Part shown: positions 24,128 to 31,570 of the stretch, piece after piece | Layout of the letters: every line of letters begins with the position of its first letter | Position numbering within the stretch: the stretch's first letter is position 1 | Assembly: GCA_021463145.1 (NCBI GenBank) | Contig: JAJTWZ010000010.1 | Location: 6,766-70,765 of the forward strand | DNA from: Blastocatellia bacterium | Lineage (GTDB): Bacteria > Acidobacteriota > Blastocatellia > UBA7656 > JADIYM01 | Direction: 5' to 3' | DNA length: 64,000 bases | Notes under the pieces: model-generated | Databases searched by the model: none | Seen by the model: the letters and a program-made list of their open reading frames with translations, nothing else | Told to the model about the DNA's origin: nothing | Program-made: the position numbers and the translations under genes

Positions 24128-24931
24128 TCAGTTGATCAGCAGATCCTTGGCCGTTTCGGGTGTGATCGTCAGCCGGCGGAGGACGATGCCGGTGTTGTCC
24201 GGAAAACGGGCGTTTTGACCGTTGATCTGCAATGCGATCGCGCGCGTGTTGCCGATGCTCAGGTCCACGGATTCGGTCGCGCGAATCATGGCTTCCTCTC
24301 CAATCTGCAGTTCCTTCTGCACCGGCTCGCCATTATCCGCGGTGTACTTCACCCAGCAGGTGTCTAGCGCCTTTAGCGTCACACGAATCTCTCCGTCGAC
24401 GACTTCAGGTTGGATTGAGACAGGCGATCCGCCCGGCGCCGCCGACGGTTCGGGATTGGGCTCGGCTTTGGGATTCTGCGACGGCCTGGTCACGGGCGCG
24501 ACCGCCGCAGGCTGCTGCGAGTATCTCCAGACGGCGTAAGCTCCGCCGATGAACACGACGGCGAGCAATCCCGCCACGATTGCGGCCGGCCAGAACCCGG
24601 CCGACGGCTCCTTGAACACGAACGGTTCGGCGTCGTCGAGCGGTGGCACGTCGGGATCGCAGACGGCGGCCTCTGCCCCCGTTTGCTGCTGATAGAGCGA
24701 CACGGCCTCGTCCTCGTCCATCTTGACGTACCTTGCGAACGCCTTGACGAACGATCGAGCATAAATGCCTTCGGGAAGGACACCGAACTCGTCGGCCTCG
24801 ATCGCTTTCAGGAAGCGAGTGCCGATCCGGGTGGATTCCGCGATTTCCGTCAGCGACAGGCCCAGTGCCTCGCGCCGACGCTTCAGTTCTTGTCCGAGCA
24901 TATTCAACGCCTCGACCGGAACGTCGGCCAT
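24128..24931 (-). CDS. rodZ: RodZ-like cytoskeleton protein (helix-turn-helix, transmembrane segment and C-terminal DUF4115-like domain)
   Basis: The N-terminus is an XRE-type helix-turn-helix (LGQELKRRREALGLSLTEIAESTRIGTRFLKAIEADEFGVLP). A single transmembrane helix and a Pro-rich linker follow, then a C-terminal beta-rich domain. Confidence 0.75.
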   Translation of the reverse strand: MADVPVEALNMLGQELKRRREALGLSLTEIAESTRIGTRFLKAIEADEFGVLPEGIYARSFVKAFARYVKMDEDEAVSLYQQQTGAEAAVCDPDVPPLDDAEPFVFKEPSAGFWPAAIVAGLLAVVFIGGAYAVWRYSQQPAAVAPVTRPSQNPKAEPNPEPSAAPGGSPVSIQPEVVDGEIRVTLKALDTCWVKYTADNGEPVQKELQIGEEAMIRATESVDLSIGNTRAIALQINGQNARFPDNTGIVLRRLTITPETAKDLLIN

Positions 24932-25158
24932 GCCGCCGGGCGTCGCTCACTTCGCCATGCGGTGCCTGTACTTCCTCTGGGCAATGACGGGGCCACCCAA
25001 ATACTAGTCCCGCTTCGCTTTAGTGTCAACTTTTCAGATTTGGAAGCGGTCCCCGGGCCAATCTTGCACATGGGTCCGGAGCTTTGGTAGCGTAGGGCTT
25101 CCCTCGGCAACGTCCTGTTCGCCCGCCGCGGCGAGACACACATAAGGAGACAGTCAGC

Positions 25159-25545
25159 ATGGCTATGGAAGCGCTCGGAATGGTCGAGACCAAGGGCTTC
25201 GTCGGTGCGGTCGAAGCCGCCGATGCGATGGTCAAGGCCGCGAACGTGATCCTCATCGGCAAGGAATACATCGGGTCGGGCTACGTGACCGTATTCGTTC
25301 GCGGTGACGTCGGTGCGGTAAAGGCCGCGACCGACGCCGGTGCGGCCGCAGCTCGACGCGTGGGCGAGCTCGTGAGCGTTCACGTCATTCCGCGGCCCCA
25401 CGTCGAGGTCGAGCGAGCCCTGGCGGCGCGAGGCATAGCGGTTCCGGCACACCTGGGAGCCGGAGCGGACAGGGCGCAGTTGACGGGCGGTGACGGCAGC
25501 CACTCGCTTCCGTCGACCGGCGCCAAGGATCGCGAGAAGAAGTAA
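25159..25545 (+). CDS. Bacterial microcompartment shell protein, BMC-H (PduA/EutM/CcmK family)
   Basis: The BMC-domain signature ([81 protein letters not shown]) is followed by a C-terminal tail of about 40 aa. An AAGGAGA ribosome-binding site precedes the start. Confidence 0.9.
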
Positions 25546-25650
25546 CACTCCACGCCGCGGTGTCCGTGCCGCGTAGCGCCGATGCTAGAGCTCCGAATGC
25601 GCGTGACGCACCGGGGCTCTTGTTCACCTGGCTGGGAAAGTGAGCCGCTA

Positions 25651-27366
25651 ATGCCGAACGACAAGGATCTCGAGTCGGTCCAGCAAGCGCGAAATCTCGT
25701 CGATGCGGCGCACGAGGCGCAGCAGCGCCTCGCCGGATTCGACCAGGCACGGATCGATCGCATTTGCGAGGCCATGTCAGCCGCCGGTCTCGCCGAGGCC
25801 GAGCGCCTCGGACTGCTTGCGCACGAGGAGACGGGATTCGGTATCCCGTCCGACAAGACCGTGAAGAACACGTTCGCGGCCGGCGACGTGCACGCATTCT
25901 TCAAGCCGATGCGGACGGTAGGGATCATCAGGCAGACCGAGACAATTCTGGAGATCGGGTCGCCGCGCGGCGTCGTGGCCGCCATCATCCCTTCCACGAA
26001 TCCGACGTCCACGGCAATCTTCAAGTGCCTGATCTCGATCAAGTCGCGAAACGGTGTGGTGTTGAGCCCGCATCCGAGTGCGGCTCGCTGCATCGCCGAG
26101 AGTGTCCGGATCATGTCCGAAGCCGCGGTCGCCGCAGGCGCGCCTCCCGGAATCATCGGGTGTATGACCGTTGCGACCGTTGAAGGCACCGAAGCGCTGA
26201 TGAAGCACAAGCGCACGGCAGTCATCCTCGCGACCGGCGGAATCGGACTCGTGCGCGCCGCTTACAGTTCCGGCAAGCCTGCATTCGGAGTCGGTCCCGG
26301 CAACGTGCCTGCCTATGTCGACGGCTCCGCGGACGTAAGCAAGGCGGCGCGCGACATCCTGACCGGCACCTGCTTCGACAACGGGACGATTTGCGCCTCT
26401 GAGCAGTCTGTCGTTGCGGACAGAGCCGTCGACGGTGCCCTCAGGGCAGCTTTCGAGGATCACGGGGCGCGCTTCCTGACCGCCGATGAAGCAGAGAAGC
26501 TGACCAGGGTCGTCGCGACTGGCACGAATGCGCTCAACCCGAAGGTCGTAGGGAAGCCCGCCAGGGTTATCGCGGAGATGGCCGGCATATCGTTGCCCGA
26601 CGGTGTCCGCTGCATGATCGCGGAGGTCGCGGGAGTCGGTCGCGACTATCCGCTCTCGATGGAGAAGCTCTCTCCGATCCTCACTTACTACACTGTCGAC
26701 GGGACGGCCGACGGCGTCGAGCTCTGCCAGAAAGTATTGCAATATGGCGGGATGGGCCATACCGCTTCGATCCATTCGCGCAAGCGGGATGTGATCGAGT
26801 TTTACGGCGAGCGCATCCCCGCGTCGCGAGTCATCGTGAACTCTCCGTCCACACACGGCGCCATCGGCTTCTCGACGGATCTGGAGCCGAGCATGACGCT
26901 GGGGTGCGGAAGCTGGGGTGGCAACGTTACGTCGGACAACATCTCGCCCTGGCACCTGATGGACATCAAGCGCATCGCGTTCGAGACGCGCGAGGTCGTT
27001 CCGAATGCCGCGCCGAAACCCGTGGCCAAGCGACCGGCCGCGACGTCGATTTCGCCGGCCCTCGCGGCGGCGCCGATCGAACGTGCCGACATCGCATCGC
27101 TCGTCGACCGCTTCATCGCCGAGCGCCGCAGCGAGGCTCCGCCGGCAGAGCCGGCACCGGCCGCGGCGCCCGCGGCTGCACCGGCCGCGACGTCGGAGCC
27201 AGCGCCCCCCGCACTGGCACCGGGACCTGCGTCCGAGTTCGTCTGCGAGGACGACGTCCGCCGCGCCATCAACGAGGGCCGCAAGATTCCGATCGATGCA
27301 AAGACCATCATCACGCCGGCTGCCCGTGAGCTCGGCGACGCGCGCGACGTCTTCGCGCGCCGGTAG
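25651..27366 (+). CDS. CoA-acylating aldehyde dehydrogenase (PduP/EutE-like) with a C-terminal Ala/Pro-rich linker and an encapsulation-peptide-like helix
   Basis: The aldehyde dehydrogenase core spans residues about 1-460 ([31 protein letters not shown]...CASEQS...GCGSWGGN). A linker of about 70 aa follows ([23 protein letters not shown]...[32 protein letters not shown]), then an amphipathic segment ([31 protein letters not shown]). The start is the ATG at 25651; the track ORF begins at 25582. Confidence 0.88.
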
Positions 27367-27375
27367 GAACCGCTC

Positions 27376-27711
27376 ATGTTTCTCGGGCACGTCGTCGGCA
27401 CCGTCTGGTCCACCAAGAAGACCCCGAACCTCGAGGGCATCAAGTTCCTCATCGTGCACCCGTACAACCTCAACAAGGAGCCGGGCACGGACATCGTCGT
27501 CGTGGCCGATCGTCTTGGCGCCGGCATCGGCGAAACGGTGATCTGCGCCTACGGGAAGGCGGCCCGTTCGGCGATCGGCGATCAGGATATGTCGATCGAA
27601 GCGGCTGTCGTCGGAATCGTCGACAGAATGGATCTTCAGGACTGCGGCTCGGACGATACCGTCGAAGCGGCGCGCCGCCTTCGGTCCGCGGGCGAGGGAG
27701 GCGCTGTCTGA
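27376..27711 (+). CDS. Bacterial microcompartment vertex protein, BMC-P (EutN/PduN/CcmL family)
   Basis: The sequence matches the EutN/CcmL pattern throughout (MFLGHVVGTVWSTKKTPNLEGIKFLIVHP...VVVADRLGAGIGETVICAYGKAARSAIGD...AAVVGIVD). It starts 9 nt after the aldehyde dehydrogenase stop. Confidence 0.88.
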   Translation: MFLGHVVGTVWSTKKTPNLEGIKFLIVHPYNLNKEPGTDIVVVADRLGAGIGETVICAYGKAARSAIGDQDMSIEAAVVGIVDRMDLQDCGSDDTVEAARRLRSAGEGGAV

Positions 27712-28673
27712 TGGCGAAGCGACGAACGACTGCTCCGCTCACCTCGGACGAACTGCAGGAACACCTGGTCGACATCTCTCCAGACGAGGTGCTCGAGCGG
27801 TTCGACGAGATTTTCGGACGGGACATCGATCTTCCGGAATCCCTTGAAGAGCTCTTGTCGCTCGACGACTACGTCGACTCGGAGTTGCGGGAGATGTTCC
27901 AGTCGATCATTGCTCAATATATGCGGCCGATCGAGTATGCGATCGAGCAGATTGGCGCCGGCGAGGCGACGCGGCGGACGGCCGAGGAAGCGGTCGAGGC
28001 GCTTCGTCCCATACGCGAGGCCTCCGAGTCGCTCGAGTACGACGACATCACGGAGATCCTCATCCGGATCGAGCAGCCGCTCGCCGAGTTTGCGAACGGC
28101 ACGAAGCGGAAGCTCATCAAGCGTGACATCACTGAGTTGAACGACGCCTGGAAACAGCTCGGCATGCTCCTCAGGCGCGAGTCCGATCGCGACGCGTCGC
28201 TGCCGACCTTGCTCTCGCTTGGAGGGCTGCCGCGCTACCTCGACGGCGTGACGACGGCACAGGTTCGCAGCCTGCGTGCGGCGGGCATAACGTCGCTCAA
28301 CGATCTCGCGGACGCGCCGGTCGAAGACATCATGGCCGTCGCCGGGCTGTCGCGCACGAGCGCCGAGCGGATCAGGGCCTTCTCGGCGGGGTCGGTGTCG
28401 GTCGCGGCGGCGGAGAATCGCGTCGGCTCGTCGGGGAAGCTTCCCGACGGCTGGATGCGCCTCGACATCGAGAGCGACACATTCCGCGGGCGAATCACCT
28501 TCGAGTACGCATCGATCGCGAAGTACCTCGAGCCGATCCTTGCGAAGCTCTCCGAAGACGGAAAGAAATCCCGCGTCGCGAAGCCGAAGTCCCGTCGAAC
28601 GACGAAGCCGCTCGTTTCGCAGCCCAAGCCCGCGCCGCGCGCGAAGCGCAGTCCCAGGAAAGCCACGACATGA
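27711..28673 (+). CDS. Hypothetical protein in the BMC operon: acidic helical N-terminus, helix-hairpin-helix-like motif and strongly basic C-terminal tail
   Basis: The 320 aa ORF is coupled to the BMC-P gene by a TGATG overlap. A helix-hairpin-helix-like segment is LRAAGITSLNDLADAPVEDIMAVAGLSRTSAERI. The tail is Lys/Arg/Pro-rich (KKSRVAKPKSRRTTKPLVSQPKPAPRAKRSPRKATT). No family was recognised. Confidence 0.6.
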   Translation: MAKRRTTAPLTSDELQEHLVDISPDEVLERFDEIFGRDIDLPESLEELLSLDDYVDSELREMFQSIIAQYMRPIEYAIEQIGAGEATRRTAEEAVEALRPIREASESLEYDDITEILIRIEQPLAEFANGTKRKLIKRDITELNDAWKQLGMLLRRESDRDASLPTLLSLGGLPRYLDGVTTAQVRSLRAAGITSLNDLADAPVEDIMAVAGLSRTSAERIRAFSAGSVSVAAAENRVGSSGKLPDGWMRLDIESDTFRGRITFEYASIAKYLEPILAKLSEDGKKSRVAKPKSRRTTKPLVSQPKPAPRAKRSPRKATT

Positions 28674-29122
28674 CCGAAGAGCAGATCATCTACGAGATCA
28701 CGAAGGCCGTCTTCAACCGCCTCGGCACGTCCGTCGAGCGATCGACGGTCGAGGATCTCGTCGCCGACGTGTATCGCGCGGTGCGACCTGCGGTGGCGGC
28801 CGGACCGGGCGCCGCCGCCGCTGCTGCGCCGCGCGACGAACGCGGTTCGCAGGATCGCGTGATCATCTCGGTCTTCGGGCTCGACCGGCCAGGCATCGTG
28901 TCGGCCGTGAGCTCGGTGCTTGCCGACGCCGACTGTTCGATCGTCGACATCAACCAGACGGTGGTGGGCGGGAAGTTCGCGATGGTGCTCGTGGCCGACA
29001 GCCGCCGTTCGACAACGGGCGTGGCCGAACTGAAGGACCGGTTCCGCGAGGCCGGACAGCGGCTCGGTGTGAACATCTACGCCCAGCGGGAAGACCTCTT
29101 CATCGCGATGCACCGCGTCTGA
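28670..29122 (+). CDS. ACT-domain protein with an N-terminal amphipathic-helix extension and Ala/Pro/Gly linker (possible BMC cargo or regulator)
   Basis: The ACT-like fold spans RVIISVFGLDRPGIVSAVSSVLADADCSIVDINQTVVGGKFAMVLVADS. The N-terminus has amphipathic helices (EEQIIYEITKAVFNRLG, VEDLVADVYRAV) followed by a linker (PAVAAGPGAAAAAAP). The gene is coupled to the upstream gene by an ATGA overlap. Confidence 0.65.
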   Translation: MTEEQIIYEITKAVFNRLGTSVERSTVEDLVADVYRAVRPAVAAGPGAAAAAAPRDERGSQDRVIISVFGLDRPGIVSAVSSVLADADCSIVDINQTVVGGKFAMVLVADSRRSTTGVAELKDRFREAGQRLGVNIYAQREDLFIAMHRV

Positions 29123-29142
29123 CGCGGCGCGCCGCGATTTGT
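29123..29142 (+). terminator. Intrinsic terminator closing the BMC operon
   Basis: A GC palindrome CGCGGCGCGCCGCG (29123-29136) begins immediately after the ACT-gene stop and is followed by ATTTGT. Confidence 0.5.
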
Positions 29143-29296: not shown

Positions 29297-29581
29297 TTGG
29301 AAACCGTCAACATCGCGCAGCTCAAGAGCGAACTGAGTCGATATCTCTCGCTGGTGCGTGCCGGATCGGAGGTCATTGTCCGCGATCGCAATATTCCGGT
29401 GGCAATGCTCGTGCCGATCGATCTCGAGGACCTGACCTTGGAAGACATTGCCTTGGTAGCCTCGGGACGTCTGCGCCCACCCCGGTCGAAGCTGTCGAGC
29501 GATTTCTGGCGACGAACTCGCCCGAGCGTGAACATCGAGGATCTTGACCGTGCCATCGAAGCGGATCGCGAGGATCGCTGA
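29297..29581 (+). CDS. Type II antitoxin, Phd/YefM family
   Basis: The 94 aa protein has an N-terminus (VNIAQLKSELSRYLSLVRAGSEVIVRDRNIPVAMLVPID) matching the Phd/YefM fold pattern. It uses a TTG start and overlaps the downstream PIN-domain gene. Confidence 0.7.
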   Translation: METVNIAQLKSELSRYLSLVRAGSEVIVRDRNIPVAMLVPIDLEDLTLEDIALVASGRLRPPRSKLSSDFWRRTRPSVNIEDLDRAIEADREDR

Positions 29582-30008
29582 ACACGCGTTCTGGGACGCG
29601 AGCGCGGTTGCGCCACTGTGCATTCGGCAGCCTGCATCGGCAGACTCGCGCGTCCTTGCCCGGCGATACGGCATCGTGGCCTGGTGGGGCACACCCGTGG
29701 AGGTCACCAGCGCGGTCGCTAGACTCGCGCGTGAAGGCGTGCTCGATGTGGTGTCGGCTTCGAAGGCACTCGACGTACTTGACGCCCTCGAGCAATCGTG
29801 GCTCGAGGTTGTTCCGAGTGACGAAATCCGGGACGTGTCGCGACAATTGTTAAGGGCCTACTCGCTGCGGGCGGCGGACTCGCTGCAACTTGCGGCGGGA
29901 CTCGTCTGGTCGAACTCGAAGCCGTCCGGACGGGTGTTCATCTGCAGGGACAACCGGCTTGCTGATGCGGCCACGGCAATCGGCTTCGACGTTCGGCGGC
30001 CCAGTTGA
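29550..30008 (+). CDS. vapC: Type II toxin, PIN-domain ribonuclease (VapC family)
   Basis: The protein is about 150 aa with PIN-like acidic positions (FWDASAV...; ...DSLQLAAGL...). It overlaps the antitoxin gene. The start is ambiguous between a TTG at 29544 and a GTG at 29550. Confidence 0.65.
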   Translation: MPSKRIARIAEHAFWDASAVAPLCIRQPASADSRVLARRYGIVAWWGTPVEVTSAVARLAREGVLDVVSASKALDVLDALEQSWLEVVPSDEIRDVSRQLLRAYSLRAADSLQLAAGLVWSNSKPSGRVFICRDNRLADAATAIGFDVRRPS

Positions 30009-30203: not shown

Positions 30204-30713
30204 ATGACTCGAATGTCAGACGATCCACGAACACTCAGTCACGTCGATGCGGATGGACGCATCCGCATGGTCGACGTCGGCGACAAGCCCGTGACTTCGC
30301 GGGTCGCGACCGCGTCCGGGTTCGTGCGCATGAGCGCGGCGACGGTCGACGCGATCCGCGAGCGCCGGACACCGAAGGGCGATCCGCTCGAGACCGCGCG
30401 CCTCGCCGGTATCATGGCCGCGAAGCAGACTGCGACGCTCATTCCGCTCTGTCACTCGCTCGCGCTCTCGTCGGTCGACGTGCGCGCCGAACTAGTCGAC
30501 GACGGCGTCCGCCTCGAGGCGACGGCCCTCGTCGACGGCCGCACCGGCGTCGAGATGGAAGCGCTCACGGCCGTTTCGGTCGCGGCGCTGACGATCTACG
30601 ACATGTGCAAGGCGATCGATCGTGAGATGGTCATCGGCGAGATCCGGCTCGAGCGAAAGTCCGGCGGGCGGTCCGGGGACTACCAGCGCGCGACCGAACC
30701 GTCCGGGACGTGA
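30204..30713 (+). CDS. moaC: Cyclic pyranopterin monophosphate synthase MoaC
   Basis: The sequence matches MoaC across its length ([29 protein letters not shown]...[31 protein letters not shown]...). Confidence 0.9.
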
Positions 30714-31570
30714 GCCGCAGGCCGCCAAAGAACCCGCACCTGAAGACGCTCGAGGCAGCGCTCGCCGAACACTTTGGCTGGCAGCCCGGCGGTGCGATCC
30801 GTGACGCGATCCTCTCGGTCCTCACTCGCAAGGCCGATCGTATCGGCGTCGACGAGGTGAGCTACTGCCGGATGGCGAGCCGCTCGCCCGGCGAGCTCAA
30901 CGCCCTCGCCGAAGAGGTCGCGCCCGGTGGCACGGCGTTCTTCCGCGACGAAGCACAGGCCGAAGCGCTCGCCGAGCGCGTCGTGCCGGGGCTCGTCGCG
31001 GCACGGGCCGCCGAGCATCGGCTGCGGATCTGGTCGGCGGCGGCGTCGACCGGCGAGGAAGCCTATTCGCTCGCGATCCTCGCGCGTGAGGCGCTTCCGC
31101 CCGACAGCGACTTCCGCGTCGAGATCCTCGCCACGGACCTGCAGGGACAGGCCATCGTCGCGGCGAGCCGTGGCCGGTACCGCGCGTCGCAGATCCGCGG
31201 GATGGATGCGACGCTCCGCAACCGCTACTTCATCGGTGTCGACGAGCCCGGACCGGATCGCGCCTTCGACGTCCTGCCGCTCGTCCGGCGGCTCGTCCTC
31301 TTCCGGCGCGTCAATCTCTGCGACGCGAACGCGTGGCGACTCGTCATCGGGTCCTTCGATCTCATTTCGTGTCAGAACGTGCTGGTATACTTCCACCCGC
31401 GCGCTGCGAACGAGCTCCTCGAAAGGCTCAGCTCGGCCCTCGCAGTTGGCGGATACCTCGTGGTGGCGGCTTCGGAGGCGGCGTTGGTGACGAATCGCGA
31501 ACTCGTTGCGGATCCGACGCTCCCGGCCGGTTTCTTCCGGAAGGCCGATCGCGAACCCAAGGACGACTGA
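30710..31570 (+). CDS. CheR-type SAM-dependent protein-glutamate O-methyltransferase family protein (orphan, with no che genes nearby)
   Basis: A CheR N-terminal helical domain is followed by a methyltransferase domain ([52 protein letters not shown]). The start overlaps the moaC stop. Confidence 0.85.

Follow-up and report, generated by a model that had tools for sequence, protein, structure and literature searches.

An aldehyde dehydrogenase gene cluster in a Blastocatellia genome as a probable satellite locus of the ACI-type acidobacterial metabolosome

The ACI type of bacterial microcompartment (BMC) comprises 125 catalogued loci, which are found only in Acidobacteria and mainly in subdivisions 4 and 6 (Sutter et al. 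2021, Nat Commun 12:3809, Supplementary Data 2; PMC8217296). Its main locus encodes (i) a PF00596 aldolase bearing an encapsulation peptide (EP), (ii) a PF00389/02826 hydroxyacid dehydrogenase, (iii) a BMC-P triplet, (iv) a BMC-H protein, and (v) three unknown proteins (PMC8217296). The aldehyde dehydrogenase (AldDh in the catalogue, AldDH hereafter) is consistently placed on a satellite locus, where it carries an EP near the C-terminus followed by an unknown domain of ~50 aa and in some cases has a fourth BMC-P and a BMC-H with standard motifs encoded beside it; in the catalogue's table of hidden Markov models (HMMs), an ACT model is named for ACI and for the MIC3 type (PMC8217296). No paper after 2021 that characterizes ACI was found. 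Described here is a cluster of five plus-strand genes (25159-29122) in a 64-kb stretch of a Blastocatellia genome; this stretch is termed the window, and all coordinates are window positions. Judged by the catalogue description and not by placement in a tree, the cluster is probably the AldDH module, that is, the satellite locus, of an ACI-type acidobacterial metabolosome.

Other described systems share individual features with this locus. MIC3, from Planctomycetes, is likewise bipartite, with an AldDh locus and a separate locus for a BMC-P triplet and a class II aldolase, and has its ACT HMM in common with ACI. In Salmonella, residues 9-41 (H1/H2) of EutQ bind the Eut shell and H3/H4 bind the EPs of cargo (2025 study, PMC12487888). 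In the eut operon of E. coli K-12 (L020 18503-20004), EutT and EutQ share an N-terminal motif of ~40 aa that reads F/L-I-T-x-x-x-[IL]-R...G...I...[IL]-TP-x-ARE-[LV]. UPF0237 proteins are stand-alone ACT proteins such as PDB 1ZPV (91 aa), and a literature search found no functional study of UPF0237, DUF711, or UPF0210.

A Pfam profile search finds a domain in each of the five products, in agreement with a first-pass annotation that had been made from the sequence alone:

25159-25545, plus strand: BMC-H hexamer shell protein, 128 aa (PF00936, 9e-29)
25651-27366, plus strand: CoA-acylating aldehyde dehydrogenase (AldDH), 571 aa (PF00171; TIGR02518, 1e-172)
27376-27711, plus strand: BMC-P pentamer (vertex) protein, 111 aa (PF03319, 8e-28)
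27711-28673, plus strand: helix-hairpin-helix (HhH) protein, 320 aa (PF14520 (HHH_5), 1e-7, its sole Pfam match)
28670-29122, plus strand: ACT-domain protein of the UPF0237/PRK00194 type, 150 aa (PF13740, 2e-15; NF001220, 89.4 bits)

The two profile matches that define a BMC in general, PF00936 and PF03319, are both present and confirm the BMC domains of the two shell reading frames, and the PF00171 acylating AldDH provides the enzyme expected of a metabolosome core. The genes had been described as five tightly coupled ones, which holds for the last four: AldDH and BMC-P are separated by a 9-nt gap, BMC-P and HhH overlap by 1 nt, and HhH and ACT overlap by 4 nt. BMC-H and AldDH, however, lie 105 nt apart and are not tightly coupled, because AldDH starts at the ATG at 25651, which has a ribosome-binding site (GGGAAAG) just upstream and is the start in every public gene call. 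The start at the upstream in-frame ATG, 25582, has to be abandoned, as public contigs all call a 571-aa protein from 25651.

The locus compares closely with the ACI satellite. The host is acidobacterial, the closest named homologues being those of Blastocatellia metagenome-assembled genomes (MAGs); Blastocatellia are here taken to be subdivision 4 of the catalogue. As in the ACI satellite, the AldDH gene lies away from any locus with the aldolase and the BMC-P triplet, and its product has an EP-like helix and then a small terminal domain:

27076-27129, plus strand: EP-like amphipathic helix, AldDH residues 476-493, with Pro/Ala-rich linkers on both sides
27235-27363, plus strand: AldDH terminal domain of 43 aa, residues 529-571, homologous to the N-termini of EutQ and EutT

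The ACI accessories are found as well, namely a BMC-H with the motifs KAAN (residues 26-29) and PRPH (residues 78-81), an extra BMC-P, and an ACT protein. BMC-H also has a GSG pore loop (residues 38-42), and its gene is preceded by the ribosome-binding site AAGGAG. At least 120 BMC-H orthologue clusters share 70% identity or more and equal length, and all of those listed are satellite-type. Both shell proteins are extended at the C-terminus, BMC-H by a low-complexity tail of ~45 aa (residues 86-128) and BMC-P by ~28 aa. The end of the BMC-H tail has a loosely conserved motif, '(S)LP...K(D/E)..KK', in three divergent lineages (the window, L021, and L026).

The catalytic core of AldDH spans residues 1 to ~470 and includes the Cys motif TICASEQ (residues 246-252). 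Its best NCBIfam models are the acetylating acetaldehyde dehydrogenase TIGR02518 and the AdhE N-terminal domain (7e-162), and its best PDB matches are 5J78, an acetylating acetaldehyde dehydrogenase (1e-148), and 3K9D. The tail beyond the core has no useful match in Pfam or PDB searches. It consists of conserved islands within variable linkers: the EP island, I[AS]xLVD[RK]F[IL][AS][EQ]R, is conserved in eight lineages, with linkers that vary in length and sequence, and the terminal domain has 19 invariant columns in 7 lineages. Both elements are conserved across lineages of 42-68% GC.

The terminal domain resembles the N-termini of EutQ and EutT, with which it aligns through the motif F/L-[IV]-[TC]-x-x-D-[IV]-R...G...I...[IL]-[IT]-TP-x-ARE. 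Four comparisons point to this likeness: (i) BLASTP matches the domain to residues 3-39 of E. coli EutQ at E = 2e-4, (ii) Smith-Waterman scores are reached by 0 of 5000 shuffles for EutT and 6 of 5000 for EutQ, (iii) hhalign gives probabilities of 88.6% for EutT and 82.4% for EutQ, and (iv) an HMM of the domain, run against 4721 ORFs, returns EutT and EutQ as its top two non-self matches. By analogy with EutQ, we infer that the domain acts as a shell-docking module, and the ~40-aa motif of EutT, EutQ, and AldDH may represent a shell-association module of more general use among BMC proteins. There are differences in architecture: in AldDH the module is C-terminal and sits on the cargo enzyme itself, whereas in EutQ and EutT it is N-terminal and on a separate adaptor or kinase; AldDH has neither a cupin nor an adenosyltransferase domain, and its shell binding is a prediction from sequence. 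The MIC3 AldDh also has a long flexible C-terminal linker that ends in a ~40-aa domain, but that domain contains four conserved cysteines and no EP accompanies it, whereas the window enzyme has one invariant Cys, an EP, and the EutQ/EutT-like motif. MIC3 further differs in having an amidohydrolase, BMC-T proteins, and a planctomycete host.

The remainder of a metabolosome core is missing from the window. A Pfam survey of the window's other larger ORFs finds no class II aldolase, 2-hydroxyacid dehydrogenase, PduL, Pta, Fe-ADH, BMC-T, or DUF711, and it agrees with the first-pass annotation that no PduL or Pta, alcohol dehydrogenase, signature enzyme, or BMC-T is encoded. The canonical set of signature enzyme, phosphotransacylase, and alcohol dehydrogenase is found neither in the cluster, nor among the surveyed window ORFs, nor in the flank gene tables of the sister loci. 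No second copy of BMC-H or BMC-P was found in the window by tblastn with both shell proteins, and no BMC genes occur in ~2.8 kb added beyond the window edge. The window's other larger ORFs include phosphate transport genes, PhoR/PhoB-type regulators, MiaB, PgpA, CinA, and an epimerase, as well as malate and isocitrate dehydrogenases, AccA, and SucD. The domain assignments (Pfam, NCBIfam) and the ORF survey thus uphold the initial picture of a microcompartment cluster centered on an acylating AldDH, with the rest of the core lacking and two uncharacterized companions.

Relatives of the cluster occur in sister lineages and, in altered form, beyond them. Exact copies of the window proteins are found in dozens of Logan assemblies of public runs and in one NCBI contig of 97,478 bp, and close homologues are annotated as Blastocatellia bacterium (MAGs), with synteny to GCA_963852865.1. 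Four sister lineages share the five-gene order and its flanks: L007 (GCA_963852865.1), L017, L019, and L025. The flanks comprise NfeD, Band7, SPOR, an esterase, and a RodZ-like gene on one side and MoaC, CheR, peptidase M50B, and PBP1A on the other, although not every flank gene is visible in every sister locus. Protein identities to L007 are 93% for BMC-H, 86% for AldDH, 92% for BMC-P, 77% for HhH, and 90% for ACT; across the sister lineages, HhH identity falls to ~54%. Such identities are consistent with purifying selection on the cluster. In L016 (7915-11385), from the Blastocatellia MAG AalE_18-Q3-R2-46_BATAC.155, AldDH, HhH, and ACT each align in two frames, which most likely reflects long-read assembly frameshifts and not pseudogenes.

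More distant versions differ in gene content. Blastocatellia AA13 has a two-gene locus of BMC-H (80% identical to that of the window) and AldDH (60% identical, with the same tail). L026 (GCA_016789295.1, 42% GC) has BMC-H, AldDH, a 443-aa HhH-like protein, and ACT, and no BMC-P. In L021 and L022, the order is BMC-H, AldDH, small ORFs, BMC-P, ACT, an unknown protein, DUF711, a small unknown ORF, and a second BMC-H. The AldDH enzymes of L021 and L026 are 64-65% identical to that of the window in pairwise comparison. BMC-P is thus part of the window-type and L021-type modules and absent from the AA13 and L026 versions; because its content varies in this way, the module appears to depend on shell genes elsewhere. 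AA13 also stands as 'ACI (main)' in the catalogue's BMC-P tree (PMC8217296). Since AA13 has both this entry and the BMC-H and AldDH genes, it ties a relative of the window module to a genome for which an ACI main locus is catalogued.

The ACT protein has three parts: an N-terminal helical hairpin (residues 3-43), a variable linker (residues 44-61), and an ACT fold (residues 62-150). Like the stand-alone UPF0237 proteins, its ACT domain passes the NF001220 (PRK00194/UPF0237) model, scoring 89.4 bits against a cutoff of 74, and matches PDB 1ZPV at 8e-14, over positions 61-149 only. In an AlphaFold2 model (pLDDT 87.9), helices are predicted with confidence at residues 3-18 and 24-43, the linker has low confidence, and the ACT fold is a standard one. 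Across 18 homologues of at least 58% identity, conservation is high over the first ~40 residues and nearly complete in the ACT domain, with a stretch between them (residues ~42-60) that differs in length and composition. The first helix, EEQIIYEITKAVFNRL, is patterned like the encapsulation peptides of E. coli EutE and EutC. Unlike 1ZPV, then, the window protein adds ~60 aa of N-terminal hairpin and linker that resemble an encapsulation signal, and the ACT protein is probably a lumen cargo targeted by this EP-like hairpin. The ACT family is much wider than the HhH subfamily, with 3991 protein matches at E up to 0.001, and full-length homologues at ~60% identity are annotated as Pyrinomonadaceae.

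The ACT proteins of L021 (10001-15001) and L022 (10001-14637) resemble those of Pyrinomonadaceae. These two loci place the uncharacterized ACT (UPF0237) and DUF711 genes jointly inside a BMC locus, DUF711 here meaning DUF711/UPF0210; the unknown protein that follows ACT is disordered or transmembrane. Past the second BMC-H lie genes for DUF3667 membrane zinc-ribbon proteins, two in L021 and one in L022. The window differs from both in having no DUF711 gene.

The HhH protein has an AlphaFold model of four parts (pLDDT 70.7): (i) an acidic, HPt-like four-helix bundle (residues ~40-160), with a net charge of -18 over residues 1-165, (ii) an (HhH)2 domain (residues 170-239), (iii) a beta-hairpin and helix (residues 247-288), and (iv) a disordered basic tail (residues 285-320), with a net charge of +13 over residues 286-320. 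Its termini have no useful match in Pfam or PDB searches. An HPt function was considered and rejected, as no conserved histidine is present on the four-helix bundle; unlike CheA P1, the protein has neither a conserved phospho-accepting histidine nor a kinase domain, and the four-helix matches are generic. It also differs from proteins with RAD51- or NusA-type (HhH)2 domains in having no recombinase domain.

How widely HhH relatives are found depends on the search. A word-indexed search returns 35 clusters, the few source names given being Blastocatellia bacterium, and an alignment scan of species-representative genomes returns three loci, all with the same cluster. A full profile search, in contrast, reveals a wide unannotated family, and most of its 414 representatives (E up to 1e-3) span both the bundle and the HhH domain. 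In the L026 module, a family member of 27% identity occupies the same position, and in L037 a family member adjoins BMC-P. A purely lineage-specific insertion is excluded by the profile search and by these two contexts. The HhH protein recurs with the AldDH-ACT module in at least two divergent lineages but does not accompany it everywhere. Other relatives have different neighbors: in L028 (Logan SRR26538806), the gene is clustered with those for two response regulators, PatA_N, PilZ, and a HEAT-repeat protein; no BMC genes are near the family members of L031-L036; and in L036 (7845-9224) the neighbors are a cyclophilin, a SpoU methylase, and, ~3.4 kb away, a DUF4388(PatA_N)-DnaJ-TPR gene. The distant members of L028 and L036 combine the HPt-like bundle and HhH domain with a coiled coil and a basic C-terminus.

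For these two companions, one alternative is that the HhH protein, a DNA-binding regulator or nucleoid protein, shares the operon without being part of the organelle and that the ACT protein is a cytosolic regulatory subunit like other UPF0237 proteins, which elsewhere are paired with DUF711. The (HhH)2 domain does resemble DNA-binding domains of the RAD51 N-terminal and NusA/alpha-CTD type, the tail is basic, the wider family occurs in non-BMC contexts, and the ACT gene of L021 and L022 is close to DUF711, with one ORF between. The HhH gene, however, is translationally coupled between BMC-P and ACT and has kept this position in two lineages whose proteins are only 27% identical, and the conserved hairpin and variable linker of the ACT protein are lacking in 1ZPV. 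On this balance, the alternative is somewhat unlikely. A role of the HhH protein as adaptor or DNA tether is conjecture. A more ambitious proposal would make it a new class of BMC accessory that tethers the organelle to the nucleoid, its acidic bundle holding the organelle while the HhH domain and tail bind DNA, and would make the EP-bearing ACT protein a small-molecule sensor in the lumen that gates AldDH; both halves together are quite improbable. To our knowledge, neither a nucleoid tether through an HhH protein nor an encapsulated ACT sensor has been described for any metabolosome.

A self-sufficient minimal BMC, with one hexamer and one pentamer forming a shell around AldDH, ACT, and perhaps HhH that detoxifies inward-diffusing aldehyde in an organism with no other BMC locus, is distinctly unlikely. 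It would account for a window-type module that encodes BMC-H and BMC-P beside the enzyme, for a five-gene block that is stably inherited, and for the fact that no other BMC gene was found in the 64 kb or within +/-10 kb in the sister genomes. It sits poorly with the AA13 and L026 modules, which do without BMC-P, with the ACI main locus catalogued for AA13, with the consistent placement of the ACI AldDh on a satellite locus, and with the lack of any enzyme here that could recycle NADH or CoA inside a closed shell. The compact, possibly self-contained locus with an incomplete core that the first-pass annotation envisaged therefore gives way to a match with the catalogued ACI satellite. That annotation had also named, as the outcome that would speak against it, a satellite of a known pdu- or eut-like type; the evidence does favor a satellite, but the type is ACI and neither pdu nor eut. 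That the cluster is a decaying BMC remnant without organelle function, as its incomplete metabolosome core might suggest, is hardly credible given five intact reading frames, shell proteins that are 92-93% identical between sister lineages (77% for HhH), an EP and terminal domain conserved across lineages of 42-68% GC, and identical proteins that recur in dozens of metagenome contigs.

Several points nevertheless weigh against assignment to the ACI satellite. The ACI main locus was not found in the 64 kb and its short flanks, nor within +/-10 kb in the sister genomes, and we infer the satellite status of the cluster from its likeness to the catalogued one. Placement of AldDH in the ACI/MIC3 clade and of BMC-P in the 'blue' clade is a prediction, the enzyme having been compared with its relatives by pairwise identity. 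The similarity to EutQ and EutT covers ~40 residues at hhalign probabilities of 82-89% and is not decisive. The HhH protein between BMC-P and ACT, with its basic tail, is in neither the text nor the HMM table of the catalogue, and its wider family is found in non-BMC contexts too (L028, L031-L036). Encapsulation of the ACT protein and any role of the HhH protein are read from sequence only.

If the cluster is the ACI satellite, its products might work together as follows. The EP helix would recruit AldDH into the cargo core, and the terminal domain would dock the enzyme on the inner surface of the shell, as H1/H2 of EutQ do in the Eut organelle. The ACT protein would enter the lumen by means of its N-terminal hairpin and flexible linker, where it could bind a small molecule and modulate the chemistry of the enzyme. 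The HhH protein may serve as an accessory adaptor, attached to the organelle by its N-terminal part and, through its HhH domain and basic tail, to DNA or some other polyanionic surface. The aldehyde would be supplied by the class II aldolase, with NAD+ recycled by the 2-hydroxyacid dehydrogenase, and a main locus in another part of the genome would encode both enzymes, the BMC-P triplet, and another BMC-H.

The spacer between BMC-H and AldDH contains two candidate hairpins:

25556-25573, plus strand: small hairpin, CGCGG-loop-CCGCG, with its stem kept in L007 and L015
25588-25626, plus strand: second hairpin, GAGCTCCG...CGGGGCTC (25588-25619), followed by T-rich TTGTTCA, in both the MFE (minimum free energy) and centroid folds

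The first of these, noticed already in the first-pass annotation, is real, and L007 and L015, the two closest lineages, retain its stem with differing loops; it is absent in L017, L019, and L010 and does not appear in the single-sequence MFE fold. The second is conserved in the same two lineages, with one compensatory change from G-C to A-U and a TTTTATT tail, and is the better supported. Both have weak support: folding of the entire spacer is no more stable than that of shuffled sequence (z = -0.4), and the hairpins are common to three sequences only, other lineages having either spacers of 30-50 nt without them or a different hairpin. The relative L021 has a hairpin of its own, of ~30 bp, directly after the BMC-H stop codon. 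The second hairpin may be a partial terminator or attenuator by which the ratio of shell to cargo is set; by lowering read-through, hairpins in the spacer of 105 nt might yield more shell protein than cargo. An Rfam search of the cluster gave no match.

There is no support for the GC-rich terminator first proposed to close the cluster. A consensus scan finds no terminator on the plus strand past 29122, the 14-nt GC palindrome 3' of ACT folds no better than shuffles (z = +1.4), and in sister genomes ACT runs into moaC-cheR within 0-27 nt on the same strand; an intrinsic terminator after ACT is rejected on these grounds. The genes moaC and cheR (30204-31570 in the window) follow the cluster directly in all sister lineages, with an overlap between moaC and the ACT stop codon in L017. 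In the sister genomes, unrelated housekeeping genes may thus be co-transcribed with the BMC operon. In the window, ACT and moaC are separated by a Phd/YefM antitoxin gene (PF02604, 6e-9) and a partner ORF of 154 aa that overlaps it and has no Pfam match (29297-30008). This pair is a recent insertion, because it is absent from that position in L007, L017, L019, and L025, where gene order is otherwise conserved.

On the other side of the cluster lies a divergent gene with its promoter:

24128-24931, minus strand: RodZ-like membrane HTH protein (HTH_25 and RodZ_C; PF13413, 2e-20, and PF13464, 2e-10)
25001-25029, minus strand: sigma-70-like promoter of the RodZ-like gene, TTGACA-17 nt-TAGTAT, with 10/12 consensus matches

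This gene had been described as divergent, RodZ-like, and likely unrelated; the first two attributes stand, but the last is doubtful. The RodZ-like gene is the divergent neighbor of BMC-H in six lineages (the window, L007, L017, L025, L021, and L022) with otherwise differing flanks, and an alignment of the six has the promoter blocks TGTCAA and AAATAnTA invariant or nearly so. It does not adjoin the cluster in AA13 or L026. A functional link between the RodZ-like protein and the BMC module, in which it would act as regulator or membrane anchor, is possible.

The cluster is most likely a variant of a catalogued satellite locus of a known, uncharacterized BMC type and as such more ordinary than the first-pass annotation supposed. 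Three elements are genuinely new, namely the EutQ/EutT-like docking domain on AldDH, the EP-like signal of the ACT protein, and the family of HhH partners, although none of these leads alters the overall picture of metabolosomes. ACI is among the largest uncharacterized BMC types and belongs to abundant soil Acidobacteria, and the window presents a clean five-gene version of its dehydrogenase module. The apparent targeting of ACT to the lumen hints at allosteric control inside the organelle, and the recurrent HhH/basic-tail partner might link the organelle to DNA. If the terminal domain of AldDH is a true EutQ-like shell binder, some cargo enzymes would dock on the shell directly, without an adaptor.

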